The notes under the pieces were generated by a model that had not been told where the DNA came from, made no database searches, and saw only the letters and a program-made list of their open reading frames with translations. Shown here piece after piece: positions 14,226-58,667 of a stretch of DNA of 64,000 bases. The position numbers were made by a program, and so were the translations under genes. This DNA is from an uncultured bacterium (GTDB taxonomy: Bacteria > Hydrothermota > Tepidihabitantia > B3-TA06 > CAYQJV01), in assembly GCA_964417925.1 (NCBI GenBank), contig CAYQJV010000003.1, positions 13,941 to 77,940 on the forward strand. Reading direction: 5' to 3'. Numbering within the stretch: position 1 is the first letter of the stretch; each line of letters starts with the position of its first letter.

Positions 14226-14804
14226 TTACCCCCTGAAAGGTTCAAAGTTGACAAAATCAGCATGATGAACTATTATTGCTTCAATTGTTCTTTTAACAAA
14301 CTCTCCTTCTTTTGAATGAGAAGATATAATGTGAATAACCTGAGCAGGAAGCCCTACCTTATAGGCTATTCCAGCTCCTGAGATGGGATGTCTTATCATC
14401 TCCCCGTTTTTGCTTTTTTTATAACTGTGTTCGTTCTTTTCGTATTCAAGTAATTTCCCTACATCATGTAATAAAGCTCCTGCGATAAGGTAGTCTCTGT
14501 TGATTTTTACTTTATCTTTATACATTTCTTCCAATACCTCTGCTATCTTTAATGCAGTCTTGGTAACAGCCTTTGTATGTTCTATCAAGCTGAAAGGAGC
14601 AGGTTTTATAAGAAGGGTAAATGGAATCTTTTCAAGCTCATCAGGGGTAAAACATGATTCCTCTATTGCGATCTTCCAGCATTCTATTACTTTTTCTTTT
14701 AACTCATTATCCTTTATTTCTTCTATCTCTGGGAAAAGAGATTTTATTCTTTCCTTTAATTTATTCATCATGTAGTTCTCCTGTGTATTTACAAGTTGTT
14801 GCAT
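14226..14804 (-). CDS. HD-domain phosphohydrolase
   Basis: HD motif AGALLHDVGK and a downstream HHADF. The annotated start overlaps the upstream gene, so the real start is probably an internal Met. Confidence 0.65.
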   Translation of the reverse strand: MQQLVNTQENYMMNKLKERIKSLFPEIEEIKDNELKEKVIECWKIAIEESCFTPDELEKIPFTLLIKPAPFSLIEHTKAVTKTALKIAEVLEEMYKDKVKINRDYLIAGALLHDVGKLLEYEKNEHSYKKSKNGEMIRHPISGAGIAYKVGLPAQVIHIISSHSKEGEFVKRTIEAIIVHHADFVNFEPFRG

Positions 14805-15534
14805 CTATCTTTCTCATGGGTTTTTGAGTTGTCTGTTCTTCATAAATATGAGCAACGAGTCCTGGAGTTCTTGCCATGATAAAAAATGCGTTACCTATTT
14901 CAGGTGGAAATCCAAGCTCACACAAAAGTGCTGCAATTGCTCCATCAACATTTACAGGAAGTTCCTTTCCTTTTAATTTTTTTATTGCATTCTTTATCAA
15001 CAGAGCTATTTTCACATAATCTCCGTAAAATCCCTGTTCTTCTGCAATTTTAAATAGTTTTTGGGTTCTGGGATCGTTGGTATGGTATCTATGTCCAAAA
15101 CCAAAAAGTTTTTCTTTTTTTTCAAGTTTTTCTTTTACGTACTCTTCTGTGGACTGCTCAAGAGATTTCTGTTCCTGTTGGCTCTTTCTTTTTATATCAA
15201 GATAATGTTTCATTGCACCTTCAATTGCTCCTCCATGATAGTTGTAGATTGCAAGTATTCCAGCAGCAAGCGAGGAATGCAGAGGGTTGCCTGTAGATGC
15301 AACGGTCCTTGCTGTAATGGTTGATGGAGGAGTAACTCCATGGTCAATTGAGGATAAGAGGATTGCATCAAGAATTTTCCGAATTCTTTCATCAGGAAGC
15401 TTACCAGTAAGGACAAGATATATTCCATCAACAAAACCGATTTCTCCCATTAATTTATCTATTCGGTATCCTCTAACATATATTTTATTCGGTTCAACTT
15501 TTGTGATTTTCGTTTCCCAGTAATGTTCGTTCAT
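14761..15534 (-). CDS. Short citrate-synthase-like protein (citryl-CoA lyase-like, catalytic domain only)
   Basis: Citrate synthase C-terminal domain signatures: SSIDHGVTPPSTITARTVASTGNPLHSSLAAGI, GFGHRYHTNDPR, FFIMARTPGLVAHIYEE. At 257 aa it has the length of CCL-type proteins. Confidence 0.7.
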   Translation of the reverse strand: MNEHYWETKITKVEPNKIYVRGYRIDKLMGEIGFVDGIYLVLTGKLPDERIRKILDAILLSSIDHGVTPPSTITARTVASTGNPLHSSLAAGILAIYNYHGGAIEGAMKHYLDIKRKSQQEQKSLEQSTEEYVKEKLEKKEKLFGFGHRYHTNDPRTQKLFKIAEEQGFYGDYVKIALLIKNAIKKLKGKELPVNVDGAIAALLCELGFPPEIGNAFFIMARTPGLVAHIYEEQTTQKPMRKIDATTCKYTGELHDE

Positions 15535-15543
15535 TTTCCCCCC

Positions 15544-16158
15544 TCATTTTTCAAGGACTTTTCTTATTTCAGAGAGAAGATGACTTGGACTTTTTATTGG
15601 GGATTCAATATTTTCCAAGATCTCCTCTGCAGATTTTGTCTTTATTGTTAATCCCTTTAATCTTTCATAAAGTGTATTTTTATCCACGGGAAAGTCAACT
15701 CCTTTTATTCTCCTCAGCACTTCAACACTCCAAGTAATTCCGAGACTTTCAGAAGCCTGTTGAAATGCGTGTATGAATACGGTTAAATTATCCCTTCCTT
15801 CTTTTATTTCTTTATAAGCAAGTTTTGCAAGCCCTCCTGCTGTGTGGGCTTTAATTGTTTTTTCCTGTAATTCTCCTTCTATTTTCTTCATTACAAGTTC
15901 TGGATCTGCTCTTAAGATATTCCTAACAGTCTGTCTTGTTAAACCAAGGAATTCTGCTATTTCATCTTCTGTTTTGTAGGACTCCTCAGAAAGGACAATT
16001 GCATAGGATGCCTCCATTAAACTTGTTATCCAGGTAAGATTTCGTAGTTCAATCAACTTTCTTGGTCCTCCCAGTAATTCAAGGGCTTTTAAAAAAACTC
16101 TTATTGCAGTTGCATCTACATCAAACTCCCTTATTTCTTCAGGTTTGATTACCGGCAT
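15544..16158 (-). CDS. Putative HTH-domain transcriptional regulator
   Basis: Probable helix-turn-helix DEIAEFLGLTRQTVRNILR. It is the first gene of the minus-strand CCL-like/HD/aconitase-like operon. The start is most likely the ATG at 16158 preceded by GGAGG. The ORF track extends to a GTG at 16164. Confidence 0.4.
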   Translation of the reverse strand: MPVIKPEEIREFDVDATAIRVFLKALELLGGPRKLIELRNLTWITSLMEASYAIVLSEESYKTEDEIAEFLGLTRQTVRNILRADPELVMKKIEGELQEKTIKAHTAGGLAKLAYKEIKEGRDNLTVFIHAFQQASESLGITWSVEVLRRIKGVDFPVDKNTLYERLKGLTIKTKSAEEILENIESPIKSPSHLLSEIRKVLEK

Positions 16159-16216
16159 CTTCACCTCCGTTTTTAAGTTATTATACTTTGCTGTATTCCT
16201 ATGTCAATATTCTTAT

Positions 16217-18702: not shown

Positions 18703-19997
18703 ATGGGTAAAAAAAAACAGTTGCCATCGTTGGAAGGCCAAATGTAGGAAAATCCACATTATTTAATAGAATTACAAGGAAAAAGATAGCAATTACTCTA
18801 AGAGAGCCGGGAATTACCAGAGATGTAATTGAAGAAGAGTGTGAGTGGCAAAACAAGAAGTTTTTACTTTTAGATACCGGAGGCTATATACCACAGCCAT
18901 CGGATTCCATTTCTGAAAAGGTAAAAAAACAGGTTTTTTATGCTTTACAAAGAGCAGACTTAGTGCTTTTTGTAGTAGATGCAAAGGAAGGAATTCATCC
19001 TCTGGATTTTGAAGTGGCAGAGATTTTGAGAAGGTCAAACAAAGAAGTTATCCTTGTAATAAACAAGATGGATGTGAAGACTGCTTCCTTCAATGTGTGG
19101 GAGTTTACAAGACTCGGTTTTGAAAAAGTTTATAAGGTTTCTGCTGAGCATGGAAAAGGAATAGGAGAGCTTTTGGATGAGATAACCAAAGATATAAAAG
19201 AAGAAAAAGAATTAAATGGAGATAGAATAAATGTGATAATTGTTGGAAGACCAAATGTAGGAAAGTCCACGCTCCTTAATGCATTGGTAAAAGAGGAAAG
19301 AGTTATTGTGGATAATACTCCAGGGACTACAAGGGACCCAGTTAAAGTAGAGAAGGATAAAGAAGGAGTTAAGTTTTCGCTCATAGACACTCCAGGGGTT
19401 AAAAAGAAAAGCAAGATAAAAGATATAGTAGAGTTTCTTTCTTCTAAGAGACTTGAAAAAAGGGTGATGGAAGCAGATGTAGCAGTGGTGGTAATAGATG
19501 CTCAAGAGGGACTCACACATCTTGAAAAGACCATTACCGGATGGTTGCTTGAAGAAGGGAAAGGAGTGATTGTAGTGGTAAATAAGTGTGATCTGTTAAA
19601 GAAAAGGGAAGTTCCTGAAATTGTTCAATATGTAAAAGCCTCTTTGCATTTTGCAAGAAACATTCCCGTAGTCCCAATTTCTGCATTAAAAGAAGAGGGA
19701 TTAGAGAAAATAGAAAATGAAGTTGTAGATGTAGCAAGAGAGAGGAAGAAAAAAATATCTGCTAAAACATTGGAAGAGGTATTTGAGAACATAATTTCTT
19801 CTCATCCTCCGCCAAGAGGAGCGATAATTAAAAGAATAGTGCAGGTTGGTATAGCACCACCGAGTTTTATTATGTTGTCTCCAAAACCTGAGAGAATAGA
19901 GCATTCTTATTTGAGGTACATAAAGAACAGATTATATGATTATTTTGGGTTTAAAGGGGTTGACATAAGAATAACAGTAAAAAGGAAAATAAAATAG
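18703..19997 (+). CDS. der: Ribosome-biogenesis GTPase Der/EngA (tandem GTPase + KH-like), reading frame interrupted in an A9 homopolymer near the start
   Basis: ATG 18703 (MGKKK) runs into a stop at 18745-18747. The -1 frame from 18711 encodes KKTVAIVGRPNVGKSTLFNR (G1) ...DTGG... plus a second GTPase domain (VIIVGRPNVGKSTLLN...DTPG...NKCD) and a KH-like C-terminus. One extra A, or a -1 slip in A9 (18709-18717), gives the canonical MGKKKTVAIVGRPNVGKS. Confidence 0.8.
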
Positions 19998-20005
19998 GGA
20001 GTTAT

Positions 20006-20033
20006 TTGACATTCATAATATTCTACATACAAT
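20006..20033 (+). promoter_or_regulatory. Sigma70-like promoter TTGACA-16-TACAAT, -10 ends 6 nt before folD ATG (leaderless-type)
   Basis: TTGACA at 20006-20011, TACAAT at 20028-20033, ATG at 20040. Confidence 0.4.
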
Positions 20034-20039
20034 TTTGGG

Positions 20040-20900
20040 ATGGAAACTTTAATCCTTGATGGAAGAAAGGCTTCTGAGGAAATAAGGATGGAACTTGTGA
20101 GGGAGGTGAAGGAGTTAAATAAAAAGGGAAAAACTCCGAAACTCGTGTTTATTACAGTAGGGGATAATCCAGCATCAAAAAGTTATGTAAGGGCAAAAGA
20201 AAGGGCTTGTGTAAAAGTTGGTATTGTTACAGAAAATAAAGAGTTTAAAGAAGATGTTGAGACAAAAGAGGTGGTAGACAAAATTAAAGAGTTGAATGAA
20301 AATGATGAGGTGGATGGGATAGTGGTACAGCTTCCTCTTCCTAAGAAGATCGATAAGGAACAGGTTTTAAATGCAATAAGTATAAATAAAGATGTTGATT
20401 GCTTAAATCCTCTAAATCTTGGCTATCTTATGATTAAAGAACCCATTTTTTATCCTAATACCCCAATGGCAATAATTGAACTTTTAAAATTTTATGGAAT
20501 AAAAATTGAAGGAAGTTACGTGGTGATCCTTGGTAGAGGTAAGACTGTAGGAGTTCCGCTTGTAAATATCTTACTAAAGAAAGGTCCTTATGGAAATGCT
20601 ACTGTTACGGTATGCCATACAAAAACCAGGAATTTAAAGGATATTACATCAAGTGCAGATATTCTTGTTTCTGCAATTGGTGTACCTGGTTTTGTAAAAG
20701 GTGATCTTATAAAGGAAAATGCAGTAATCGTAGATGTAGGGATAAATGTGATTGAAGGGAAGATTGTTGGAGATGTAGATGCTAACTCTGTAATAGGTAA
20801 AGCAAAAGCTCTTTCTCCAGTTCCGGGTGGAGTAGGGCCAATGACGGTGACGATGTTGTTAAAAAATGTGATAAAGGCTGCAAAGAGGAATGTTGCTTGA
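20040..20900 (+). CDS. folD: Bifunctional methylene-THF dehydrogenase / methenyl-THF cyclohydrolase
   Basis: ILDGRKASEEIR...LVFITVGDNPASKSYVRAK...GRGKTVGVP...PVPGGVGPMTV. Confidence 0.9.
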   Translation: METLILDGRKASEEIRMELVREVKELNKKGKTPKLVFITVGDNPASKSYVRAKERACVKVGIVTENKEFKEDVETKEVVDKIKELNENDEVDGIVVQLPLPKKIDKEQVLNAISINKDVDCLNPLNLGYLMIKEPIFYPNTPMAIIELLKFYGIKIEGSYVVILGRGKTVGVPLVNILLKKGPYGNATVTVCHTKTRNLKDITSSADILVSAIGVPGFVKGDLIKENAVIVDVGINVIEGKIVGDVDANSVIGKAKALSPVPGGVGPMTVTMLLKNVIKAAKRNVA

Positions 20901-21750
20901 AGAAATACTCAAAGAAAGGAAGAAAACAATAGATAAAAAAATAGATGAGTTTTTAAAAGAAAACGGAGGTAAACTTGTTGAGGCAATGAAGTATAGCGTA
21001 TTTGCTGGAGGAAAAAGATTAAGGCCATTGCTTGCTTGGTTATCCTATGAGGCATGCGGTGGAGGAAGCGAGGAGGATATTCTTCCCTTTGCCTGTGCAG
21101 TTGAACTCGCTCATACTGCGACCCTTATTCATGATGACCTTCCTAGTATGGATGATGATGATTTAAGAAGAGGAAAACCTGCAAGTCATAAAGTATTTGG
21201 TGAGGCAATGGCGATTCTTGCAGGAGATGCATTGATAATAGCTTCATTTGAACTTGCTCTTCTTTCAAAGGCACCGAAGGATAGGGTAGTGCGGTCAGCA
21301 AGATTGCTTTCCCAGGCTATAGGATTTAAGGGGGTTACAAAAGGACAGGAACTTGATCTTTTTACAGAGGATCTTAATCCAAGAGTTTTAAGAAAGGTGC
21401 ATTTGTATAAAACTGCTGTATTTATATCTGCATGTATGGAGGGGGGAGCTCTACTTGCAGGAGCAGAGGAGAAAAAAATTCTAATGATAAGAAAAGCAGG
21501 AACATTTATGGGTATGGCATTTCAAATACAGGATGATATACTTGATGCAGTTGGAAGTGAAGAAAAATTGGGAAAAAGAGTTAAAAAAGACCAAGGAAAG
21601 CCTACATATACTGCAATTTATGGAGTGGAAGGGGCAAAAAGGATAAGAGATGGTTACTGTAGAAGAGCTAAAAAACTGTTTGATGTCTTGGGTAGGGAAT
21701 GGGAAATATTTAAAGATATAACCGACTTTGTAGCAAGGAGGGAGTATTGA
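20890..21750 (+). CDS. Polyprenyl synthetase (FPP/GGPP synthase, IspA family)
   Basis: First Asp-rich motif LIHDDLPSMDDDDLRRGKP and second Asp-rich motif FQIQDDILD. Chain-length specificity (C15 vs C20) cannot be read from the sequence by eye. Confidence 0.85.
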   Translation: MLLEEILKERKKTIDKKIDEFLKENGGKLVEAMKYSVFAGGKRLRPLLAWLSYEACGGGSEEDILPFACAVELAHTATLIHDDLPSMDDDDLRRGKPASHKVFGEAMAILAGDALIIASFELALLSKAPKDRVVRSARLLSQAIGFKGVTKGQELDLFTEDLNPRVLRKVHLYKTAVFISACMEGGALLAGAEEKKILMIRKAGTFMGMAFQIQDDILDAVGSEEKLGKRVKKDQGKPTYTAIYGVEGAKRIRDGYCRRAKKLFDVLGREWEIFKDITDFVARREY

Positions 21751-23615
21751 GTATTCTTGAGAGGATAAATTCTCCTGCAGATTTAAAAAAATTGAAACTT
21801 GAAGAGCTTGAAAAACTTACCGGAGAGATAAGGAAAAGAATAATAGAGGTAACCGCAAAAAATGGAGGGCATGTAGCACCGAATCTTGGGGTGGTTGAAC
21901 TTACAATTGCATTACACTATGTGTTTAATGCGCCGCAAGACAAAATAATATGGGATGTAGGGCATCAGTGTTATACCCATAAACTTTTGACTGGCCGAAG
22001 GAAGGCTTTTGAAACTATAAGAAGAAAGGGAGGAATTTCAGGATTTCCCAAAAGAGAGGAGAGTGAATACGATGTTTTTGGAACAGGACATGCAGGAACA
22101 TCATTATCTGCTGCTTATGGAGTTGCAGTGGCACGGGATTTACTTAATGAGAACTACCGGGTAATTGCAGTAATAGGAGATGGTTCTTTGATTTCAGGAA
22201 TGGCACTTGAAGCATTAAACCATATAGGAGCTTCAGGAAAGGATATAATGATAATTCTTAATGACAATGGAATGTCCATTGCAAAAAACCCTGGAGCTAT
22301 TGCTCTTTACCTAAACAGAATAATAACCATGCCTTTTTATAAGAGATTAAGAGCTAAGGTATGGAATTTACTTGGTAAACTTCCTGCAGAAAAAAGGGAT
22401 AGAGCAAGGAGAGTCGCAAGAAAGATAGAGAAGAGAATGAAAGGATTACTTATTCCTGGGGTATGGTTTGAGGAGCTTGGTTTTCATTATTTTGGTCCTC
22501 TTGATGGACATGATTTAAAAGGACTTATATCCTTCTTTAAGAGAATTGAGGACATTCATGGTCCTTTATTGATACATGTGTTGACAAAGAAGGGATATGG
22601 ATTTGAAATTGCCCAGGAGAATCCTGAACTCTTCCATGGAGTTGGTCCTTTTGATTTGAAGTCTTTTGAAATAATAAAGAAGGGTAGTAAAAAGAGTTAT
22701 TCTTCTTTCTTTGGAGAGACTCTTGTTGAATTTGCAGAAAAAGATAAAAGGATAGTTACAATTACTGCTGGAATGTGTCTTGGCACAGGGCTTACGAAGT
22801 TTAGAGAAAGATTTCCCCAAAGGTTCTTTGATATGGGGATAACTGAGGAACACTGTGCTACCTTTGCAGCAGGACTTACCTTGAGGGGTTTGAAGCCGGT
22901 TTTTGCTATTTATTCTACATTTTTACAGAGAGCTTTTGACCAGGTGATACATGATATTGCATTGCAGAAACTTCCGGTTATTTTCTGTATAGATAGAGCA
23001 GGCATTGTAGGAGAGGATGGTCCAACTCATCATGGAACATTTGATATTTCATACTTAAGACTCATACCCAACATAGTGGTTTCTGCTCCAAAAGATGAAG
23101 ATGAATTAAAAGACCTTTTATATACTGCTTTAAACTATGATAAAGGACCTTTTGCATTGAGATATCCAAGAAGTTCTGTAGTCGGAGTTAAAGTAAAAAA
23201 GAGCCCCCAAAAAATTGAGATAGGCAAATGGGAAGTTCTGAAAAAAGGAAGAGATGTGTGTATTCTTGCTGTTGGATCAATGGTATATCCATCTCTTGAA
23301 GCAGCAGAGATTTTGAAAAGATGTGGCATCTCTGCTCAGGTGGTGAATGCAAGATTTATAAAGCCTCTGGATGAGGGAATGCTTGAGGTGATGGCGAGAA
23401 GATTTAAAAAATTGGTAACGGTTGAAGAAAATACCTTAGAAGGTGGTTTTGGAAGCGCAGTATTGGAATTTCTTGAGAAAAAGAAAATAAAGAAGGAGGT
23501 CTTAAGGATAGGTATACCCGATAAATTTATAGAGCATGGTTCAAGGAGTGAGTTACTTTCAGAAATTGGTTTAACAAAGGAGGGTATATCGGAAAAGATT
23601 AGAATGTTTTTATGA
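21747..23615 (+). CDS. dxs: 1-deoxy-D-xylulose-5-phosphate synthase
   Basis: TPP-binding region GHAGTSLSAA...IGDGSLISGMALEALNH, and the transketolase-like middle and C-terminal domains. 622 aa. Confidence 0.9.
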   Translation: MSILERINSPADLKKLKLEELEKLTGEIRKRIIEVTAKNGGHVAPNLGVVELTIALHYVFNAPQDKIIWDVGHQCYTHKLLTGRRKAFETIRRKGGISGFPKREESEYDVFGTGHAGTSLSAAYGVAVARDLLNENYRVIAVIGDGSLISGMALEALNHIGASGKDIMIILNDNGMSIAKNPGAIALYLNRIITMPFYKRLRAKVWNLLGKLPAEKRDRARRVARKIEKRMKGLLIPGVWFEELGFHYFGPLDGHDLKGLISFFKRIEDIHGPLLIHVLTKKGYGFEIAQENPELFHGVGPFDLKSFEIIKKGSKKSYSSFFGETLVEFAEKDKRIVTITAGMCLGTGLTKFRERFPQRFFDMGITEEHCATFAAGLTLRGLKPVFAIYSTFLQRAFDQVIHDIALQKLPVIFCIDRAGIVGEDGPTHHGTFDISYLRLIPNIVVSAPKDEDELKDLLYTALNYDKGPFALRYPRSSVVGVKVKKSPQKIEIGKWEVLKKGRDVCILAVGSMVYPSLEAAEILKRCGISAQVVNARFIKPLDEGMLEVMARRFKKLVTVEENTLEGGFGSAVLEFLEKKKIKKEVLRIGIPDKFIEHGSRSELLSEIGLTKEGISEKIRMFL

Positions 23616-26600
23616 TAAATCTATTCCTTTTATTTTTTATTACGCCGAATTTTTACTCTTACTTGTCTAAGGAGGTAAATATCAGCTATGACTATGGTAT
23701 CGTATTTGAAGAAAAGTGGATTGACTCGGTCTTTCTTGGTATAGAAAGTGTAAAGACCCTGTCTTCCTATCTTGCCCAAAAAACAAGAGAATCCATGGTA
23801 AAGAAGTTTCTATCCCAAACAAAGGAGAGGTTAAAAAAGGAGTCCCTTGGATCCTTGGTTATGGAAGGACTTATCCCTAAGATAGAGATACCGGGTTTTG
23901 AAGAAGAAACTTCTATAGATATCTCCGGATCCGATCAGATCACTGTGGGTATGGGAAGTACTAAATATGCAGAAGGGCAATCTGTATCAATTGAACCGGA
24001 AATGAAGCAGGATATAAAAGTAAAGGTACTTGGAACAATAGCAAGAAAGACCCAGGTAGAGATGGACTACAGTTCTCAGAGGGAGGTGCAGGCGGAAAAT
24101 ACAATAAGAATAACATATCAGGGGGATGAAGATGAGGTGACTGAATATATAAAGGCGGGAGATATATCTTTAACAATGCCAACCACTGTTATGACCGGAG
24201 GACTCCCCACCCATAAAGGACTTTTTGGATTCAGTGGTAAATGGAGGTTTGGCCCTTTAACTCTTTATGCAGTGGCTTCTAAGGAGGAGGCTACCTCTAC
24301 GACTCAAGAGTTTACTCAAGGAATAAATGTAGAGGAAAAAAAGGATTCAATATACGATTATCAATACGAAAAGGAAAGGTTTTTTACCATTCTCAATGAT
24401 TCTATAAAAAAATATCTGGGTGATGATACAATTATTACCGGAGTAGGTGTTTATGTATTTGATTACACAACCCCTGATAGGATTACAAAACCTGCTGTTG
24501 CAACTCCTTATGGAAATCTCTATCCTGAATATAAACCTTACGATTCCAGAGAAGAAATAACAAAAGGTAACTTCTATCCTCTTGTACGAAACGAAGAGTT
24601 TTACTTTCATGAGGGGACAGGAATAATTGAACTTACAAAATCCTTTTATGGAAACTACATTCTCGCGGTTGCATGTACTACCTCTACTGGAAGAAAACTT
24701 TTCAGCTATAATGGAGATACTTTAATCCTTCTTCTTGTATGGCCAGAGAATCCAGATTCATCTCTTATTACGTGGAAAAACGAACTAAGAAATGTTTATT
24801 CTGTTGGAGATGTTAACATTAAAAACTTAAAGATAACCATAGTGAGAATATCTCCAGGAGATGCTACAGAACTTGAGACCGAAGGTCCTGCTAAAGGAAA
24901 ATCTTTTGCAGAAATTCTTGGAATAGATGCTGACGGAGATGGAATGGTGGATGCAAAGTATATGGACCCCTCCAGGGGTCTTGTATGGTTTCCATATAGA
25001 GAACCGTTTAACCATTCTGACCTCTCGGTAAGAGATTCTTCTATTTATCTTACTCGGTATGTTTCGGATCCAAAATATAAAATAATTTTTTCCTATACAC
25101 GACCTCTACAGTATCAACTTCCGGTAGGAATAAAGGAAGGAACAGTAAGAATTTGGGTAAATGGTGAAGAACTTTCTGAGGATGAATTCAGTGTAAATTA
25201 TGCTACAGGAGTGGTTACCATAAAAAGACCTGTGCCAGCAGGTGCTGAGATAAAGATAACTGCTGAGCAGACTCCTTTCTTTATAAACCCCAGAGAAGGA
25301 TCAATAGCAGGAATAAGAGCAGAGACAAAACTTACAGAAGATGCTACGATTGGATGGACCTTTTTATATAGAAATGAGAAGGAAAGGGGAGTAATAAGAC
25401 CGACCATAGGATCAGAACCGTATAGTAGAGCAATAACTGCTCTTGATCTTAAAATAGATAAAGAACTCGGGGGAATTACAGAGTTTCTTGATAGACTCCC
25501 TCTTATAAGTACTGATGAACCATCTACGATAAATTTTGAGACCGATGTAGGTATTTCAATGCCAAATCCCAACACTATGGGGACAGCCTACATTGAAGAT
25601 TTTGAAGGAATTGAGGAGAGCGATGAGCTGGTAATAACTAAGAGATGGTATCCTCCAAGTATTCCTGTTTCCAAGGACTCTGCTATAGAGACATATTCAA
25701 GGAGAAGACCACAGATAGATGTGGTGACCATAAATAAAAGGGATGTGTTTGGTGAGGTTACAGGTGATGTGTTCCAGAATCTTCAGGATGTCTTAAGAAT
25801 TGTATATACTCCAGAAGATAGTACACGGTGGAGTGGAATAATGACTGCTCTTGTCGGAGGAGAGGTTTTCGATATCACAGATAAAGATAACTTGGAGTTT
25901 ATATTTAAAACAGATGCAAAAAAAGGTAGAATCTATATAGATTTTGGTTCAGATATAGATGAAGATATGCTTCGGCTGGATAAAGATGGAAATATAAGAG
26001 GATTGGATACCTTGGATACAGAGGATAAAAATGGAAATATGATGTTAAATTTAGGGGAAGATACAGGACTGGATGGTATTGCTGGAAAGGATGGTGAGGA
26101 GGTTGCAGGAGATGATGGAAATGATGATTATGATGAGAAAACAAATCTCATGGGTACTGAGGGGAATGGAATGCTTGATACCGAAGATATTGACCAGGAC
26201 TGGGGTTGGAATGGTGGGAGTTTTACAAGAAACGATTATTATGAGGTAATGATAGATCTGGAAAAAGAAAGTGAGTATATTGAGGAACTTGAAAATGGAT
26301 GGAAGCTTCTCAGGATACCTCTTTCTGATTCATCTGCTTATAAAAAATTCGGGAGTCCCCAGGCTAAACTTATTAATGAATTCAGAGTGTGGTTTGAAGG
26401 AATGGAGGGAGTTGACACGCTTTATATTTACTCTTTAAAGTTCCAAGGCACGGTGTGGAAAGGCCTATCGGTGTATAAAGAAGACACCACCTCTGAAGAG
26501 CCGGATACCACAGAGAAGGTCTCTATTGCCCCAGTGAATAGAGAAATTGACCCTGAGTATACTTCTCCTTTTAAGCTAAGAAAAGACATAAGTGGACAGT

Positions 26601-29053
26601 ATGAAATAGAAAATGCACTTGAACTTAAGTATGAAAATATAAAACCTGGACATGGAGTCAAAATATATCGCTACAGTACAGATCCTTTGGATCTTAGAGG
26701 CTATAAAAAGATTTCTATCTACATACATGGGGATGAAGAAAGCGCTCTTTTTTTCCTTAAAATAGGTACAGATTCGTTAAACTATTATGAATATAGAAAC
26801 AAAATCAACGCAGGCAAAAAAGTTGAATATGGAGAAGGGTGGAGAGAATTTGAAATTGATCTTGCCGGGTTTGCCTCAATAAAGAAAGATTCTATACAAT
26901 CCGATACTCTCAAATTCTATGGGGATCCAACTCTGGCTAATATTAGGTACCTATCCCTTGGAATTATAAATGGAGGAGAAGGAGAAATATCGGGTAAGGT
27001 ATGGTTTAACGATATTAGGGTGAAGGATCCGTGGAGGGAAAAAGGAGTATCTTTCACAGGAAGGTTGAAATTTAAACTCGCAGATGTGGGATTTACCACT
27101 GTTAACTTTTCAAGAAGTGATCCTAACTTTGTTTCCTTTTCAGATCCAACAGGAGTTAAGGCAGGTGGACTTACAAACAATCTTTCCGTGTTTACTCAAG
27201 CAAATATTGATAAACTTTTTCCAAAAAAGGCAGGTTTTAAAATACCATTGGGGATTACTTATACACGAAGGACCTCCACTCCCAAATTTTCACCTTATGT
27301 AAGTGACTATCGAATAGGTAAAAAAGAGGCAGAAGAATTTACTGAAACGAGTGATAATAAAGGATTTAAAATTTCTTTTTCAAAAAACAAAAAGTCTAAA
27401 AATAAATTTTTAAACTACACTATAGATGCATTAAACTTAAGTACAGAGGCTTCATTAAATCATAACTTAAGGAATGCTACTAAGAATCTTGATTCTACAA
27501 GAAGTTTTAATACTAAAGCATCCTACCGAATATCTCCTCAGTTGTTCATGAAGGTTAAAGGTCGGAAGATATACTTTATACCGAATAGTATATCCCTTAC
27601 TCTATCCCAAAACTATTCCTACTCCAGGAGTTGGTCAAGAGTTTCTCCTGATGAGTCTTTTGGTAAGCCAATTTATGCAGATGAAAGAAAGACCTTTGTT
27701 ATTTCTTCTTCGGCAACTCACTCCTTTATAGAAAGATTTCTTTCTTTTAGTGCTGTATTTTCAAATACAAGAGATTTAAAGGAACCAAATTATGTAAGAG
27801 GAATCAATATAGGAAGGGATGCAGGCAAAAATTTGAGACTTACGTACAGTATTTCAGGAGTGAACTTAAAAGATTTTGGGAGGCCTGGTGTTAGTGTTCA
27901 AACAGACTATCAAGAGAATCATTCTATAGATATACAGATAGACACTTTTGATACGCGAAATCTCAATAACTCCTTTAATCTAAATGCCTCCTGGCCTGGT
28001 ATAAATACAGGCGGAATTATTGAAAAAATTAAGTTTATTTTTCCTCAAAAGGATACAGTAGAAAAGAAAGGATCTCCTCGATGGTTGATTCATACCTTTG
28101 CTTCAATTTTGAAAAAAGTTAGACCTTTGGAGGTTTCCTATGGGTACTCTAAAAGTTCTTCCTATCAGTACTACCTTGGGGTTCCATCTACAAGATACAT
28201 ACTTGGGTTTGAAGATAGTATTCCTCTGTATGGAGAAGACAGCACAGTTCAGTATTTAGGTACGGGTTCAAGAAGAAGAGAGCATCGGCTATCTCTGGAG
28301 ACAGGGGCTACTGTAGGAGATATTAATCTAAATTTGAGAGCGAATAAAAATGCTTCCTTCACATTGAACTTTGGGCAGACGAACTTTTCTTATTCATATA
28401 TTCTTCCTTCTGTATCTCTGAATATTTACAACCTTTCAAAGCACATCAAGAAATTTCTTCCAACACTGCAGAATGCATCTTTAAACTCTTCTTTTGAAAG
28501 GAAAAAGACCTATAATGGAACCATAGAGTATCAAGATAATGGAGGGATGATCGCGGATACAAATGCAGTAACTGAAGAGATGAATTTCTCACCCCTTGTG
28601 TCTCTCTCAACCTATTGGAAGAGGAAGGTTACCCTCACTGCCCAGGTTACCCATCAAGATACAAGAACCATAAGGATTTTTGGAGAGCTTGGAACTACTG
28701 TTACACGTTACAAAAAAACCGATTATGAATTCTCTGCTGGATACTTATTTAGTGCTCCTTCAGGGCTTAAAATACCTTGGCTGAGAAATGTGAGGTTTAA
28801 AAATGACCTTAATCTCAATGCAACCTTTATGGTTTCAGAAATTAAAAATTCAAAGTATGATGAGTCCACAGGTGAAGAAGATGTGTTGATAGATGATATA
28901 GAAAAACAGCTTACTGTATCTGCATCTTACAACTTTTCAAATACCTTTACAGGAGGACTTAATTTTATTTACAAATCAAAACATTCTCGGGTGAATCCGA
29001 GGTATGATTATTCTCAGTATCGTCTTGATGTGGTAATTACTATAAAATTCTGA
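23612..29053 (+). CDS. Giant (1813 aa) secreted outer-membrane beta-barrel protein, SprA/Sov-like (candidate T9SS translocon)
   Basis: N-terminal signal sequence. Extreme length. The C-terminal third is rich in alternating S/T/N/Y/F beta-strand-like segments and ends in ...VITIKF with a terminal Phe (OMP signature). An internal Asp/Gly-rich segment is present. The context has a T9SS CTD cargo and a PorX-like regulator. The family assignment (SprA) is tentative. Confidence 0.4.
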   Translation: MINLFLLFFITPNFYSYLSKEVNISYDYGIVFEEKWIDSVFLGIESVKTLSSYLAQKTRESMVKKFLSQTKERLKKESLGSLVMEGLIPKIEIPGFEEETSIDISGSDQITVGMGSTKYAEGQSVSIEPEMKQDIKVKVLGTIARKTQVEMDYSSQREVQAENTIRITYQGDEDEVTEYIKAGDISLTMPTTVMTGGLPTHKGLFGFSGKWRFGPLTLYAVASKEEATSTTQEFTQGINVEEKKDSIYDYQYEKERFFTILNDSIKKYLGDDTIITGVGVYVFDYTTPDRITKPAVATPYGNLYPEYKPYDSREEITKGNFYPLVRNEEFYFHEGTGIIELTKSFYGNYILAVACTTSTGRKLFSYNGDTLILLLVWPENPDSSLITWKNELRNVYSVGDVNIKNLKITIVRISPGDATELETEGPAKGKSFAEILGIDADGDGMVDAKYMDPSRGLVWFPYREPFNHSDLSVRDSSIYLTRYVSDPKYKIIFSYTRPLQYQLPVGIKEGTVRIWVNGEELSEDEFSVNYATGVVTIKRPVPAGAEIKITAEQTPFFINPREGSIAGIRAETKLTEDATIGWTFLYRNEKERGVIRPTIGSEPYSRAITALDLKIDKELGGITEFLDRLPLISTDEPSTINFETDVGISMPNPNTMGTAYIEDFEGIEESDELVITKRWYPPSIPVSKDSAIETYSRRRPQIDVVTINKRDVFGEVTGDVFQNLQDVLRIVYTPEDSTRWSGIMTALVGGEVFDITDKDNLEFIFKTDAKKGRIYIDFGSDIDEDMLRLDKDGNIRGLDTLDTEDKNGNMMLNLGEDTGLDGIAGKDGEEVAGDDGNDDYDEKTNLMGTEGNGMLDTEDIDQDWGWNGGSFTRNDYYEVMIDLEKESEYIEELENGWKLLRIPLSDSSAYKKFGSPQAKLINEFRVWFEGMEGVDTLYIYSLKFQGTVWKGLSVYKEDTTSEEPDTTEKVSIAPVNREIDPEYTSPFKLRKDISGQYEIENALELKYENIKPGHGVKIYRYSTDPLDLRGYKKISIYIHGDEESALFFLKIGTDSLNYYEYRNKINAGKKVEYGEGWREFEIDLAGFASIKKDSIQSDTLKFYGDPTLANIRYLSLGIINGGEGEISGKVWFNDIRVKDPWREKGVSFTGRLKFKLADVGFTTVNFSRSDPNFVSFSDPTGVKAGGLTNNLSVFTQANIDKLFPKKAGFKIPLGITYTRRTSTPKFSPYVSDYRIGKKEAEEFTETSDNKGFKISFSKNKKSKNKFLNYTIDALNLSTEASLNHNLRNATKNLDSTRSFNTKASYRISPQLFMKVKGRKIYFIPNSISLTLSQNYSYSRSWSRVSPDESFGKPIYADERKTFVISSSATHSFIERFLSFSAVFSNTRDLKEPNYVRGINIGRDAGKNLRLTYSISGVNLKDFGRPGVSVQTDYQENHSIDIQIDTFDTRNLNNSFNLNASWPGINTGGIIEKIKFIFPQKDTVEKKGSPRWLIHTFASILKKVRPLEVSYGYSKSSSYQYYLGVPSTRYILGFEDSIPLYGEDSTVQYLGTGSRRREHRLSLETGATVGDINLNLRANKNASFTLNFGQTNFSYSYILPSVSLNIYNLSKHIKKFLPTLQNASLNSSFERKKTYNGTIEYQDNGGMIADTNAVTEEMNFSPLVSLSTYWKRKVTLTAQVTHQDTRTIRIFGELGTTVTRYKKTDYEFSAGYLFSAPSGLKIPWLRNVRFKNDLNLNATFMVSEIKNSKYDESTGEEDVLIDDIEKQLTVSASYNFSNTFTGGLNFIYKSKHSRVNPRYDYSQYRLDVVITIKF

Positions 29054-29406
29054 TGAATAGAAAGGAGAAAATAGTTCTGTATTTTCTTTGTGTTATTCTT
29101 CTTTTGGGAATTATAGGAGAGTATGTAAAAAAGTTAAAGGAGGAAAAAGAAATAGAAAGAATTAAATTATACATGGAAGAGAAAACCACAGAGGAAGATA
29201 TCTTTCCTGTAGAGATTAATACCGCTTCTTTTGAAGAGTTGGTAAAGATTCCAGGAATAGGTCCAGTAATTGCAAACAGGATAATTGAAGAAAGGAGAAA
29301 AAAACCTTTTGAAAACATAAAGGAACTTTTGAGGGTAAAAGGAATAGGAAAGAAAAAGTTGAATATTATCAAAAATTATGTTATAATAAAAAAATGGGAA
29401 GAATAA
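29053..29406 (+). CDS. comEA: ComEA-type helix-hairpin-helix DNA-binding protein
   Basis: N-terminal TM segment, then VEINTASFEELVKIPGIGPVIANRIIEER...LLRVKGIGKKKL (tandem HhH). Confidence 0.7.
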   Translation: MNRKEKIVLYFLCVILLLGIIGEYVKKLKEEKEIERIKLYMEEKTTEEDIFPVEINTASFEELVKIPGIGPVIANRIIEERRKKPFENIKELLRVKGIGKKKLNIIKNYVIIKKWEE

Positions 29407-37293: not shown

Positions 37294-38478
37294 ATGATCA
37301 TTTTTTGTGGCGTAATTGTTTTTATCTATCCACTGGCAAGTAACATAAGTCTTAGAGATTACAAAGTGCCTGTGAGTAGTGCGCGAAGTTCATTTGTTTC
37401 GGGAATGCTTTATCTACAGGATAGAGAGGATAGTATTCCCATTGGTGGTGTGGGGACCTTTGCCTTTGATTTTAATAAATTTTATTCTTCTTTGCCTTTT
37501 GCCTATGATATTACATTTCATTTGAGAACAGATGCTCAGTATCCTGAGCGTTTTGAAATAAATGATACAACAATGAGAGAGGATACCTTTAGCACCCATA
37601 GTGTATACACAGTGCAGTTAAGTGGGCAGATGAACAAATATCTCTTTAAAGGGAAGGATTTTTTTGGATTTACAAAACTGGATTATACTCAACAAACAGT
37701 GTATTACCAACCGGATATTGAAATCATAGGAGGTTTTGGAATAGGAAGATTTATAAATGCTACCCCTCTTGCAAGAGCAATAAGAATAGAAGAAGAGTTG
37801 AAAAAAGAGGGGGTGCTGGTTGGGGATATACCTTATGGGGTGCTATTAAAATTTGCAAAGCATCTTGCTCCTGAAGTTCAGAAGAAATACCAAGAGGAGT
37901 TTTATTACTGGGAAAGGGAATATTATGCAACACTTGAGGAGATCCTGAAATCATCGGGTGTATTGAAAAACCAGGAACTGGGAAGTACTGGTACCTTAGT
38001 TATAAATGATATAATGAATGAGTTTATAGCAGAAAGATATTACGGAACTGAGTTTGCCTTAGGGATAGGATACGAAATTTCAAATCCTGCTCAGTATGAT
38101 ACCATTCATGACGTGTTTATTGAGTTTGCAGAAAAATTCGCTACACCACTTGATATAAAATCTCAGTTTATTCAGTCCTTTTCCCTTCAGTTTCCATTTA
38201 CAGGAGGCAAACTTGGCAATGAACTTTCTTCAAGTTTTATGATTAAATTTTCTTATGAAGTGAGTAATAAAATAGATTTCGTAGGTGCTTACTATCTGAA
38301 TGCCACTATACAGAGGGAAGGAGGAAGAATTTACCATGAGCATGAAGGAGATATCACATTCATCTATACCATAATTAACAGACTTGACCTTACCAATACA
38401 ATCTCTGTGAGAAGGCCTTCTGGTATAGAGAGGTTCGATTGGGAGTTCAGGACCGAGTTAAAATACCGCATATTATAA
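37294..38478 (+). CDS. Hypothetical secreted/outer-membrane protein
   Basis: N-terminal hydrophobic signal-like segment. The C-terminal half is rich in amphipathic beta-like segments. No recognised motif. Confidence 0.3.
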   Translation: MIIFCGVIVFIYPLASNISLRDYKVPVSSARSSFVSGMLYLQDREDSIPIGGVGTFAFDFNKFYSSLPFAYDITFHLRTDAQYPERFEINDTTMREDTFSTHSVYTVQLSGQMNKYLFKGKDFFGFTKLDYTQQTVYYQPDIEIIGGFGIGRFINATPLARAIRIEEELKKEGVLVGDIPYGVLLKFAKHLAPEVQKKYQEEFYYWEREYYATLEEILKSSGVLKNQELGSTGTLVINDIMNEFIAERYYGTEFALGIGYEISNPAQYDTIHDVFIEFAEKFATPLDIKSQFIQSFSLQFPFTGGKLGNELSSSFMIKFSYEVSNKIDFVGAYYLNATIQREGGRIYHEHEGDITFIYTIINRLDLTNTISVRRPSGIERFDWEFRTELKYRIL

Positions 38479-41268: not shown

Positions 41269-41636
41269 TGAGGTAATGCCTCCCACAATTTTGTAGAATA
41301 AACCTTTGATATGTACCTAATTGCTCCAAGATTTGTTCCACGTTTAGCAGCAATAAGTAGAAAAACCGATCCATCACCAATTAGTTTGGTAAGAAAGTGT
41401 CCTTGTTCTGTAGATAATAAATTGTCCACCATTTTCCCAAGTCTTGCATCTTCCACAGTAGCTATAATTCTTTTCATTACTGTGCTTAAATTGGCTGCTG
41501 CAAGTTCTGAATCCATATTCTCAGGATTTGGTGTATACTCAGATATTATAAGTCCATCTGAACTTACCAGTGAGACCGTTAAAATTCCATCAACCTGTTT
41601 CCCCATTTCTTCAAGAATATTTTTTATTTCCATCAT
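41265..41636 (-). CDS. Roadblock/LC7 (MglB-like) domain protein
   Basis: A ~120 aa protein with the GILTVSLVSSDGLIIS...GHFLTKLIGDGSVFLLIA pattern typical of the Roadblock/LC7 family. Confidence 0.65.
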   Translation of the reverse strand: MMEIKNILEEMGKQVDGILTVSLVSSDGLIISEYTPNPENMDSELAAANLSTVMKRIIATVEDARLGKMVDNLLSTEQGHFLTKLIGDGSVFLLIAAKRGTNLGAIRYISKVYSTKLWEALPH

Positions 41637-58204: not shown

Positions 58205-58208
58205 TATT

Positions 58209-58667
58209 TTATAATTCTTTATAAGCAGTATATGCAGCTGCTATGGCATCTGCTTCATCATCATGGAGTTTACTATTCTCTATTTTTAAAAGTTTTTTTA
58301 CCATGTATCTTATCTGTTTTTTTGAAGCTCTTCCATTTCCTGTAACCGCAAGTTTTATTTTGGCAGGAGTATATTCTTTAACCTCTATATTCTTCTTTGA
58401 AAGTAGATACAAAATCGCCCCCCTTAACTGGGCAGATAGAATAATACTTCGTGCAGAAACTTTTCTAAAAAACAGGGATTCAATGGCACATATCTGTGGT
58501 TTCTCTCTTCGGATTATTTTTGCCAGTTTTTCTGTTATATCTTTTATTCTTTTTTCTATCTTTTCAGAAGAGTTTCCTTTAATAAAACCATGAACTTTTA
58601 ATTTTCCTTTTTCTATTATTCCGTAACCTGTTCTTACAAGACCAGGGTCTATACCCAGTATCTTCAC
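58209..58667 (-). CDS. ruvC: Crossover junction endodeoxyribonuclease RuvC
   Basis: [18 protein letters not shown]. The conserved acidic residues and the C-terminal ...[11 protein letters not shown] are present. Confidence 0.85.

Follow-up and report, generated by a model that had tools for sequence, protein, structure and literature searches.

The open reading frame at 23612..29053 of the window (the whole 64-kb stretch of DNA analysed here) very probably encodes the SprA/Sov outer-membrane translocon of the T9SS, with a probability that we put at about 0.88 on family models, alignments and predicted structures. It would be the compact form of ~1800 residues that is typical of WOR-3 (Caldifarciminota) and neighbouring candidate phyla. 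So identified, the protein is an ordinary member of the known SprA/Sov family; all that sets it apart is the placement of its gene in an operon behind ispA and dxs. The ORF listing gives a single frame with an ATG start and 1813 residues, the translation of which ends in ...RLDVVITIKF*. The first-pass annotation had described this ORF as a giant outer-membrane protein and a candidate SprA/Sov translocon, and both parts of that description held up. The features of the gene and its product are as follows.

23612..29053, + strand: predicted sprA/sov, T9SS outer-membrane translocon, short form (TIGR04189, PF14349, 6h3i_A homology, Foldseek)
23612..23662, + strand: short hydrophobic leader at aa 1-17, possibly a signal peptide of atypical form (sequence, hydropathy, homolog leaders)
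23663..23851, + strand: conserved N-terminal fold, aa 18-80, predicted as three strands and a long helix (profile alignment, model secondary structure)
25940..26221, + strand: acidic loops rich in D/E/G/N, aa 777-870, the part of the protein best conserved across the family (alignments, model)
26600..27313, + strand: region matched by Pfam SprA_N, aa 997-1234 (PF14349)
26942..29050, + strand: strand-rich C-terminal barrel part, aa 1111-1813, ~27 long antiparallel strands predicted (DSSP on the model, Foldseek)
28004..28117, + strand: two-helix loop, aa 1465-1502, at the site of the ~180-aa Bacteroidota insert (insert map, profile, model)
29024..29050, + strand: putative C-terminal beta-signal ...VVITIKF with terminal Phe (sequence, homolog C-termini)

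Family assignment and predicted fold

The search with the SprA family model, which the first-pass annotation had proposed as a check, was positive: TIGR04189 (surface_SprA, NCBIfam) matched the protein in five stretches and scored 396.5 bits (cutoff 200; E 2.5e-118). In addition, PF14349 (Pfam SprA_N) matched at 65.4 bits against a cutoff of 27 (E 6e-18). The protein alone aligned by phmmer to F. johnsoniae SprA (6h3i_A) in three collinear stretches (E 9e-25), although its identity to Bacteroidota SprA is only 21-26%. We then used a clade profile built from 21 sequences, the same set as for the conservation values, and a further SprA alignment of 36 sequences. The clade profile found 6h3i_A in the PDB at E 1.2e-174, with profile positions 30-1794 corresponding to SprA 52-2376, again in three collinear stretches that cover almost the entire SprA.

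The structure was modelled with AlphaFold in two open, overlapping fragments, aa 1-1100 (mean pLDDT 76.2) and aa 614-1813 (mean pLDDT 84.6), the latter being the prediction of the C-terminal ~1200 residues that had also been suggested. Foldseek searches of both fragments against the PDB returned the same four SprA chains (8gl8_A, 8gl6_A, 6h3i_A and 6h3j_A) on top, at E 1.7e-54 to 1.5e-43 and TMq 0.62-0.65 for aa 614-1813, and at E 3.7e-51 to 1.3e-33 for aa 1-1100; the best non-SprA matches were at E 2e-5 and at E 8e-8 (TM 0.07), respectively. Both halves are thus predicted to have the SprA fold. DSSP assigned 27 long strands at aa 1111-1811, in line with the strand-rich C-terminus noted at first pass, together with 4 strands at aa 561-652 and 5-8 at aa 101-235, and the total of ~36-39 in these open-fragment models is compatible with a ~36-strand barrel. 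Twelve of the long strands in the fragment model follow the aa 1465-1502 loop, which would match the strand 24/25 loop of SprA (PMC10994853).

The two termini were also compared with those of the homologs. The terminal Phe (F1813, in ITIKF), pointed out at first pass, is conserved in at least 90% of the 21 clade members, the consensus being V.FKF. The claimed signal sequence stood only in part: a hydrophobic leader, MINLFLLFFITPNFYSY, is present, but it is short and uncharged and lacks the basic n-region of the canonical form, and Kyte-Doolittle hydropathy is high only at aa 1-12. The closest homologs have leaders of a similar atypical form, whereas the more distant ones carry canonical MKK...AQ leaders, and cleavage of the putative leader is plausible.

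A large size, a strand-rich C-terminus and a terminal Phe are generic for outer-membrane proteins, and SlpA, SusC, MtrB and LptD barrels do appear, weakly, in the Foldseek list for aa 614-1813. The ORF might accordingly encode another giant outer-membrane or periplasm-spanning protein (TamB/AsmA-like, LptD-like, SusC/TonB-type or an S-layer-anchor barrel) that resembles SprA by size and strands only. We give this reading almost no chance. At E values up to 1, no TamB, AsmA (DUF490) or LptD (OstA) family matched the protein in NCBIfam or Pfam, while the SprA models scored above their curated cutoffs; in the Foldseek list, LptD (9kn3_A) came at rank 50, with E 2.9e-3 and TMq 0.13; and the alignment to SprA is collinear over the whole length. 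A TamB/AsmA/LptD identity is refuted by the family models, the clade profile and both Foldseek searches, and an artefact of low-complexity strand repeats is excluded because the profile alignment is collinear over 1800 positions.

Conserved segments and missing inserts

Two segments outside the barrel stand out in the alignments. At the N-terminus, residues Y26, E34, W36, D38, S39, G43 and Y53 are invariant among the homologs, and clade profile positions 30-299 align to F. johnsoniae SprA 52-330. The N-terminus of F. johnsoniae SprA is enclosed by SkpA and needed for function (PMC10994853), and by analogy the aa 18-80 fold may be the part that SkpA encloses. The acidic segment at aa 777-870 carries the motifs EDTGLDG, GDDGNDDY, GTEGN and DTEDID.D and the invariant residues E804, G819, D838, N852, D856 and D859, and its motif skeleton also occurs in Bacteroidota SprA. 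The segment is modelled mostly without helix or strand, at a mean pLDDT per 10-residue block of ~77-88 for the greater part of its length and below 50 at aa 865-870, and it may bind a cation. A pattern from this segment, GD[DL]GNDD[YK], taken from an alignment of 7 sequences, was used to scan for related loci.

The first-pass annotation had correctly stated that 1813 residues is shorter than Bacteroidota SprA, but its doubt about the SprA identity on account of the size falls away, because SprA outside Bacteroidota normally has 1750-2100 residues, as seen in the compact forms of WOR-3, Stahlbacteria, TA06, Zixibacteria and Gemmatimonadota. Among the GTDB species representatives, a set that excludes the source genome of the window, we found 447 relatives of 1650-2100 aa labelled with the same five lineage names. 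The best one (MAG binchicken_co349_126) is 59% identical and the others are 25-35% identical. In addition, 1086 cluster representatives match at E<=1e-3, and the best 150 of these 1086 are nearly all 1740-2150 aa long. The closest group is formed by short SprA homologs (1740-2000 aa) from WOR-3, Stahlbacteria and TA06, most of which are filed as 'hypothetical protein'; they show 28-59% full-length identity and share the ispA-dxs-sprA-(M28)-comEA-like gene order and the GDDGNDDY motif. Within this short clade, the window protein is by sequence a deep branch, since it has the single close relative mentioned above and all others are at most 38% identical.

F. johnsoniae SprA (6H3I/6H3J, 8GL6/8GL8; 2403 aa) resembles the window protein in its collinear homology over nearly the whole length and in the predicted fold of both halves, with the N-terminal fold, the SprA_N region, the strand-rich barrel ending in an aromatic beta-signal and the acidic motifs EDxGLDG, DDY, GxEGN and DxEDxxxD in common. 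In contrast, the window protein is ~590 residues shorter, and the identity in local segments is ~23%. Compared with Bacteroidota SprA in general, ~520-590 residues of loop and cap inserts are missing. The largest Bacteroidota-specific insert, of ~180 aa, lies before window residue 1480 (median 182 aa by hmmalign of 29 sequences of at least 2390 aa); its site in F. johnsoniae SprA coincides with the break of the clade profile at SprA 2042-2165, and the window protein has at this place the two-helix loop (H853-863 and H876-888 in fragment-model numbering). Two other inserts of F. johnsoniae SprA that the window protein lacks measure ~55 aa (before aa 270) and ~38 aa (before aa 691); several shorter ones, of 12-20 aa, are missing too, as is some of the N-terminal extension. 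As judged from the alignments and models, the window protein keeps the N-terminal fold, the acidic segment and the barrel despite these missing inserts.

SprA of Marinimicrobia and Latescibacterota (2060-2140 aa, 'cell surface protein SprA') is 22-27% identical over 55-97% of the query and likewise has reduced inserts: the aa 1480 site holds only ~43 aa, and the extra residues total ~160. A Marinimicrobia contig has an M28 peptidase after sprA, as have the 15 relatives described below. These proteins differ from the window protein in being ~250-300 aa longer and in the absence of dxs upstream. The length of SprA therefore rises stepwise, from ~1800 aa in WOR-3 to ~2100 aa in Marinimicrobia and Latescibacterota and ~2450 aa in Bacteroidota, suggesting that a conserved core (N-terminal fold, acidic segment and barrel) is separable from lineage-specific decoration. 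Such a division helps to define a minimal translocon and to pick smaller structural targets, and it leaves the understanding of the T9SS mechanism unchanged.

Probable operon and T9SS genes in the window

We next consider the neighbours of sprA, listed here from the upstream side.

20006..20033, + strand: promoter-like TTGACA-16-TACAAT, candidate promoter for the operon, within the 42 nt that precede folD (11/12 consensus match)
20040..20900, + strand: folD, first after the sole sizeable gap in the array (FolD models ~300 bits, all below curated cutoffs, best E 1.9e-89)
20890..21750, + strand: ispA (farnesyl diphosphate synthase), with a 4-nt overlap with the dxs start (NF045485)
21747..23615, + strand: dxs, its stop overlapping the sprA start, ATGA (TIGR00204 850 bits, junction sequence)
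29053..29406, + strand: ComEA-like small protein of 117 aa with a helix-hairpin-helix domain and a hydrophobic segment at the N-terminus (PF12836 HHH_3 65.7 bits)

For ispA, NF045485 scored 274 bits (E 1.3e-81), 1 bit under its curated cutoff of 275, and for the ComEA-like protein, TIGR01259 and TIGR00426 matched below cutoff. The folD-ispA-dxs operon described in the first-pass annotation was confirmed as three genes that immediately precede sprA on its strand and overlap at their ends, and so was the overlap of the sprA start with the dxs stop, the ATG at 23612 lying within the ATGA junction. The sprA stop and the ComEA-like start share 1 nt (TGATG), and gene ends overlap continuously from folD through iorA. 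The promoter scan of the region, using a consensus that may not be that of this phylum, gave 62 sites versus 56.3 +/- 7.1 in shuffles; the TTGACA-16-TACAAT site is only one weak promoter candidate because the counts were no higher than in shuffles. In the promoter/terminator scan, whose counts likewise did not exceed those of shuffles, no terminator-like site was found at the dxs-sprA or sprA-comEA-like junction. This arrangement makes it very probable that sprA shares a transcript with ispA-dxs upstream and the ComEA-like gene downstream, and that its translation is coupled to theirs. The sole Rfam match was a tRNA-Val.

The coupling to dxs, called unusual at first pass, is real and conserved in the lineage: in 36 of 65 relatives the gene immediately before sprA is dxs, joined to it through ATGA in at least 22 cases, and the order extends to ispA-dxs-sprA in 35 loci and to folD-ispA-dxs-sprA in 18. 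On the downstream side, 32 of 63 relatives, Zixibacteria, Gemmatimonadota and Edwardsbacteria among them, have a ComEA-like gene that is either next to sprA or separated from it by an M28 peptidase gene; this peptidase, which was checked with Pfam, comes after sprA in 15 of the relatives in the GTDB scan, and the majority of these 15 are labelled WOR-3. The conserved block around sprA reaches further, to folD, ruvX, mltG, buk and iorAB, and inspection by eye of 80 related loci (990 clustered ORFs) added phosphoglucomutase-like, leucyl aminopeptidase-like, ABC permease, NadC-like, ProRS-like, LptF/G-like and GspE/PilB-like neighbours.

Elsewhere in the window, genes with T9SS family matches are present.

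1705..3579, + strand: S15 X-Pro dipeptidyl-peptidase, predicted T9SS cargo (PF02129 and PF08530, TIGR04183)
about 3391..3570, + strand: type A T9SS C-terminal sorting domain of the S15 peptidase (TIGR04183)
53165..54691, - strand: porX, T9SS response regulator with receiver and PglZ domains (NF052313, PF00072 and PF08665)

The cargo with a sorting domain and the PorX-like regulator, on which the first-pass annotation had based its candidate, were both recovered: TIGR04183 (Por_Secre_tail) matched the last 99 aa of the S15 peptidase at 26.1 bits against a cutoff of 23, and NF052313 (T9SS_RR_PorX) matched PorX at 493.3 bits against a cutoff of 300. We found no porV, porK/L/M/N, porU/Z, sprE/porW or porP within the 64-kb window or beside sprA in the 80 related loci. 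This absence is uninformative because T9SS genes are scattered in Bacteroidota too, as in Draconibacterium, where sprA lies between ruvA and trp genes and the gene upstream is ruvA instead of dxs. One candidate outer-membrane protein, at 37294..38478 (394 aa, with a signal peptide), might have been a divergent PorV. We rejected this identity: the protein had no NCBIfam or Pfam match and no PDB match by sequence or by a 23-sequence profile, and Campylobacteraceae and Poribacteria have homologs of it as well. The window encodes LptE and a lipid A acyltransferase, indicating a diderm envelope, and it also encodes a GGGP-synthase-family gene and an IspH-UbiA fusion.

The missing core genes bear on whether the protein is a true SprA homolog that works outside a canonical T9SS, either in a reduced system of SprA, PorX and CTD relics or on its own, as a pore for export or uptake that has other partners. 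Such a role would fit the loss of the Bacteroidota-specific inserts, insofar as these contact accessory subunits, as well as the 'hypothetical protein' labels of the WOR-3 homologs, and we found no literature on a T9SS in WOR-3. We nevertheless judge it quite improbable: besides the dispersal of T9SS genes in Bacteroidota, the presence of PorX and of a sorting-domain peptidase, both above cutoff, would make no sense unless the system worked, hundreds of species in these phyla have an intact, full-length SprA with invariant residues throughout, and the N-terminal fold that F. johnsoniae requires (PMC10994853) is retained. A SprA/Sov translocon of a T9SS thus remains the preferred reading.

The conserved operon raises a separate matter, namely whether the ispA-dxs-sprA coupling is adaptive and ties the amount of translocon to isoprenoid supply, for example through an undecaprenyl-phosphate-dependent anchor glycolipid for T9SS cargo or through ether-lipid chemistry. 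The dxs-sprA pairing and its ATGA junction persist even though the SprA proteins are only 27-35% identical and the flanking genes, before ispA and after sprA, differ between loci, and the GGGP-synthase-family gene and the IspH-UbiA fusion could be cited in favour. However, the conserved block reaches clearly unrelated genes, sister lineages have other genes before sprA (lptF/G, a DUF2723-like glycosyltransferase or ruvA), and ispA-dxs is an ancient pair in its own right, found in E. coli in the operon xseB-ispA-dxs. To our knowledge, no experiment or mechanism links Dxs to the T9SS, and we regard an adaptive coupling as unlikely. Since sprA sits amid a long block of unrelated housekeeping genes, the coupling to dxs need not mean a functional link, and since the conserved neighbours include no T9SS gene, we interpret the ispA-dxs-sprA arrangement as a conserved, constitutive housekeeping operon without a mechanistic tie to isoprenoid synthesis. 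A broader proposal would combine two ideas: that the compact ~1800-aa SprA is a minimal and possibly ancestral translocon, lacking the Bacteroidota inserts and perhaps some accessory subunits, and that its coupling to ispA-dxs and the gene of the putatively periplasmic ComEA-like protein (plus M28 in relatives) is more than inherited gene order and forms a functional module, in which the export of cargo is tied to the synthesis of envelope or anchor from isoprenoids. We hold this combination to be unlikely. We know of no experimental study of a T9SS in the WOR-3 phylum, and the sole cultured WOR-3 strain, sy37, is described as non-motile in a paper that leaves secretion unmentioned.

Proposed export pathway and place in the lineage

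For the preferred reading, a SprA/Sov translocon, the mechanism can be outlined from the F. johnsoniae system (PMC10994853), assuming a complete T9SS in the source genome. By analogy with that system, the window SprA would be exported by Sec and then inserted by the BAM complex via its C-terminal ...IKF beta-signal. The inserted protein would form a very large single-chain beta-barrel that is capped on the outside, with one opening towards the periplasm and a lateral one towards the membrane surface. A cargo protein, for example the S15 peptidase, would enter the barrel from the periplasm, and its C-terminal domain would be bound in the SprA cavity together with loops of the carrier protein PorV. 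The carrier-cargo pair would finally be pulled out via the lateral opening, with proton-motive-force energy from the PorLM/GldLM motor (PMC10994853).

The equivalog model that the window protein matches, 'T9SS outer membrane translocon Sov/SprA', also covers Sov (PG0809) of Porphyromonas gingivalis, which is compared here through this model. Sov belongs to the long forms of Bacteroidota, and the cargo of P. gingivalis is attached to A-LPS. The role of Sov with PorV, the PorK/N rings and PorW (PMC8754138, PMC12365241) would be expected to be the same for the window protein.

Taken together, a recognisable T9SS translocon, PorX and a CTD cargo are placed in a WOR-3 (Caldifarciminota) lineage where most homologs carry the label 'hypothetical protein'; the relevant part of a T9SS review lists other FCB phyla and not this lineage (PMC11285876). 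The conserved ispA-dxs-sprA-comEA-like operon can serve as a synteny marker for the lineage.

Family assignment and fold of the 1813-aa protein

The sprA gene proved to be as the first-pass annotation described it: a single uninterrupted ORF of 1813 aa (23612..29053, +), whose ATG start overlaps the dxs stop codon as ATGA and whose translation ends in ...RLDVVITIKF. The G+C content is even over the region (0.36-0.38), and thus there is no sign of a foreign origin for sprA. The protein starts with MINLFLLFFITPNFYSY, a short hydrophobic segment without basic residues, a leader type shared with the nearest relatives, and more distant relatives carry canonical MKK...AQ leaders. Judged from the sequence, Sec export via this putative leader is plausible.

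By sequence and fold, the protein is a member of the SprA/Sov family, and the earlier candidate assignment as a T9SS translocon was thereby borne out. The curated equivalog model TIGR04189 ("T9SS outer membrane translocon Sov/SprA") matched it at 396.5 bits (E 2.5e-118; cutoff 200 bits), and aa 997-1234 matched Pfam SprA_N. Searched against proteins with solved structures, it matched the SprA chains of F. johnsoniae and nothing else (E 9e-25, three collinear stretches). A profile built from the 21-sequence alignment of the protein's own clade detected F. johnsoniae SprA at E 1.2e-174, with profile positions 30-299, 308-1605 and 1605-1794 pairing in order with SprA residues 52-330, 408-2042 and 2165-2376; therefore, the homology covers the whole protein and not a single domain.

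The protein was modelled as two overlapping fragments, aa 614-1813 (mean pLDDT 84.6) and aa 1-1100 (mean pLDDT 76.2), each with a 36-sequence alignment. In Foldseek searches of the PDB, the C-terminal fragment retrieved the F. johnsoniae SprA chains 8gl8_A, 8gl6_A, 6h3i_A and 6h3j_A (E 1.7e-54 to 1.5e-43, TMq 0.62-0.65), the best non-SprA match being the S-layer protein SlpA (2e-5). The N-terminal fragment retrieved the same four chains (E 3.7e-51 to 1.3e-33), with the best non-SprA match at 8e-8 and a TM of 0.07. A prediction as a TamB/AsmA-like or LptD-like protein, which the first-pass annotation had named as the outcome that would speak against SprA, did not occur: LptD appeared at Foldseek rank 50 (E 2.9e-3, aa 614-1813), and the HMM scans gave no match to the TamB, AsmA or LptD families even at E up to 1, so this reading is excluded.

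The models contain about 27 long strands in aa 1111-1811, four in aa 561-652 and five to eight in aa 101-235. The predicted total in the two fragments, ~36-39, can be reconciled with the 36 strands of the F. johnsoniae SprA barrel (PMC10994853). That barrel carries a cap and has two openings, one to the periplasm and a lateral one at the membrane surface; the cargo C-terminal domain binds in its cavity together with loops of the PorV carrier, the motor driven by the proton-motive force supplies the energy that takes the PorV-cargo pair out via the lateral opening, and the idle pore is sealed by a plug protein (PMC10994853). By homology, the 1813-aa protein would form a closed, capped barrel with periplasmic and lateral openings, and would accommodate the cargo C-terminal domain and PorV loops in its cavity. 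The PorV-cargo pair would then leave through the lateral opening, driven by the motor, and a plug would occupy the idle pore.

Length classes and the retained core

The lengths of SprA homologs track taxonomy.

SprA length by lineage
WOR-3, Stahlbacteria, Hydrothermales, TA06: 1740-2000 aa
Zixibacteria, Gemmatimonadota: about 1920-2100 aa
Latescibacterota, Marinimicrobia: 2060-2140 aa
Bacteroidota: 2390-2550 aa

With aa 614-1813 as the query, an exhaustive HMMER search returned 1086 cluster representatives (E<=1e-3). Of the best 150, nearly all are 1740-2150 aa long; the exceptions are a number at 940-1650 aa and three that exceed this range, at up to 2628 aa. When 29 long sequences (>=2390 aa) were aligned to the short-form profile, their extra residues fell into discrete inserts.

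Extra sequence in long SprA, by residue of the 1813-aa protein
before residue 1480: ~182 aa
before residue 270: ~55 aa
before residue 691: ~38 aa
about nine inserts: 12-31 aa each
N-terminus: extra sequence

The ~182-aa insert corresponds to the break of the clade profile alignment at SprA 2042-2165. At its site, the model of the 1813-aa protein has a short loop with two helices (aa 1466-1501) and, after it, exactly 12 long strands, an arrangement that agrees with the strand 24/25 loop of F. johnsoniae SprA, a consistent but circumstantial correspondence. Compared with F. johnsoniae SprA, the protein has ~590 residues fewer; the studied Bacteroidota SprA proteins have a large insert in the strand 24/25 loop that is missing here, and their gene context is different.

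Besides the barrel, the protein keeps two other parts. One is the N-terminal fold at aa 18-80, in which Y26, E34, W36, D38 and S39 are invariant; it aligns from SprA residue 52 and, on sequence grounds, may be the counterpart of the F. johnsoniae SprA N-terminus, which adopts its fold within the SkpA trimer and on which transport depends (PMC10994853). The acidic stretch aa 777-870 is the family's most conserved segment, and its motif skeleton (EDTGLDG, DDY, GTEGN, DTEDID.D) also occurs in Bacteroidota SprA.

Gene neighbourhood of sprA

Genes flanking sprA
folD: starts 20040, +, upstream of ispA
ispA: +, upstream of dxs; NF045485, 274 bits, 1 bit under the cutoff of 275
dxs: +, directly upstream of sprA; TIGR00204, 850 bits
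29053..29406: ComEA-like helix-hairpin-helix protein, 117 aa, PF12836 (HHH_3); 1-nt overlap with the sprA stop

The folD, ispA, dxs and sprA genes lie on the same strand with overlapping ends, and every junction from folD to iorA is an overlap or a ~10-nt gap. The only gap ahead of this array, a 42-nt stretch before folD, contains a TTGACA-16-TACAAT match, of a kind no commoner here than in shuffled sequence, and the promoter/terminator scan found no terminator-like site flanking sprA. From this arrangement, dxs and sprA are likely co-transcribed and translationally coupled.

We surveyed 80 related loci, 65 with enough upstream DNA and 63 scored downstream. The coupling to dxs, singled out earlier as unusual, recurs: in 36 of 65 loci, dxs immediately precedes sprA in the same orientation, with ATGA at the junction in at least 22, and these loci share 27-35% SprA and 52-64% Dxs identity with the window. 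In 35 loci ispA comes before dxs, and in 18 folD comes before ispA; genes further upstream vary. In other branches, lptF/G-like genes or a large glycosyltransferase-like gene lie upstream of sprA. Since the conserved block in several genomes also includes ruvX, mltG, buk and iorAB, which have nothing to do with secretion, we read the coupling as part of a housekeeping operon that is tightly packed and inherited; a mechanistic link between sprA and isoprenoid synthesis is possible, but gained no support from the analysis. The annotation as sprA is correct and useful, the conserved operon around it is of mild interest, and the locus is not a new system.

Downstream, a ComEA-like gene is the next one after sprA in 19 of 63 loci and comes behind an M28 peptidase in 13 (together 32/63), an order that spans several phyla, including Zixibacteria, Gemmatimonadota and Edwardsbacteria (for example, loci L001, L005, L013, L046, L066, L074 and L076). 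We know of no T9SS role for the ComEA-like HHH_3 protein. The secreted M28 peptidase (PF04389, 98 bits) immediately follows sprA in 15 of the 63 relatives, which mostly carry the label WOR-3 (L014 15364..16161, L024 13763..14560 and 13 more loci), and also in a Marinimicrobia contig (L082 12280..13179); it is missing from this position in the window. Because M28-fold glutaminyl cyclases modify the N-termini of T9SS cargo in P. gingivalis, the peptidase may, by analogy, be T9SS-linked.

In every lineage examined, sprA lies among DNA-repair or other housekeeping genes, not T9SS genes: ruvA is directly upstream in Draconibacterium (L081 5306..5887), and in the window lineage ruvX is two genes downstream, with ruvABC elsewhere in the window (56650..58667).

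The der/engA ORF was listed as 18963..19997, and the GTPase Der of the closest relative (429 aa) aligns unbroken to 18711..19985. Within 18703..18720, the only ATG for der (18703) is shifted out of frame by one base across an A9 run (ATGGGTAAAAAAAAACAGTT); A10 in place of A9 would restore MGKKKTVAIVGRPNVGKS. Two readings of the run are considered, an assembly error at the homopolymer or a slippage site within an essential gene.

T9SS context, lineage and other genes of the window

T9SS-related and tested genes
53165..54691 (-): porX; NF052313, 493 bits, cutoff 300
1705..3579: S15 X-Pro dipeptidyl-peptidase, predicted cargo; last 99 residues match the type A sorting domain (TIGR04183, 26.1 bits, cutoff 23)
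37294..38478 (+): 394-aa protein, N-terminus resembling a signal peptide; nothing matched in Pfam, NCBIfam or the PDB

Both the PorX-like regulator and the cargo with a T9SS C-terminal domain, claimed earlier for this genome, are present at scores above their cutoffs. LptE and a lipid A acyltransferase are also encoded in the window, and these point to a diderm envelope with LPS. No PorV, PorK/L/M/N, PorU or SprE was found within the 64 kb. This absence says little, because T9SS genes are scattered in Bacteroidota as well; in one Draconibacterium genome, sprA has ruvA on one side and tryptophan genes on the other. The 394-aa protein was tested as PorV and rejected, given its lack of database matches. 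Its 51 homologs, all "hypothetical", come from Eisenbacteria, Poribacteria, Campylobacteraceae and Bacteroidetes bins, and some contain a dockerin domain.

An identical protein occurs a single time in the public collection, on an 81-kb NCBI contig. The best relative among GTDB species representatives, a MAG, shares 59% SprA and 82% Dxs identity, and the remainder, with labels such as WOR-3 (phylum Caldifarciminota in present NCBI naming), Stahlbacteria and TA06, share 25-35% SprA identity. From this pattern of similarity and the shared gene order, we infer that the window represents a deep branch of the WOR-3/Caldifarciminota lineage. The short SprA form is common in several candidate phyla, mostly recorded as "hypothetical protein". 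We found no literature on WOR-3 together with T9SS, and the WOR-3 phylum is absent from the passages of a recent review that name other FCB phyla as possible T9SS carriers (PMC11285876).

Several other genes were noted. A geranylgeranylglyceryl/heptaprenylglyceryl phosphate synthase family gene (60531..61253, -; NF003198, 282 bits) and a gene for a 577-aa protein in which IspH/LytB is fused to a UbiA-type prenyltransferase (49070..50803, -), together with ispA-dxs, hint at archaeal-type ether-lipid synthesis, which has been discussed for FCB-group bacteria. In a 257-aa ORF (14761..15534, -), the match to citrate synthase is confined to the C-terminal part (profile positions 162-355), and the ORF adjoins a 206-aa ORF (15544..16164, -) with a "near_KaiC" regulatory domain (TIGR03879, 120 bits); in 14761..16164, citrate synthase may be split or unusually arranged. 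Three ORFs had no Pfam or NCBIfam match: 52239..52961 (-, 240 aa), which sits between purF and porX, 59442..59921 (-, 159 aa) and 47960..49069 (+, 369 aa). A Roadblock/LC7 domain protein (41265..41636, -) overlaps a 347-aa TPR protein (41633..42676, -), forming an MglB-like/regulatory pair.
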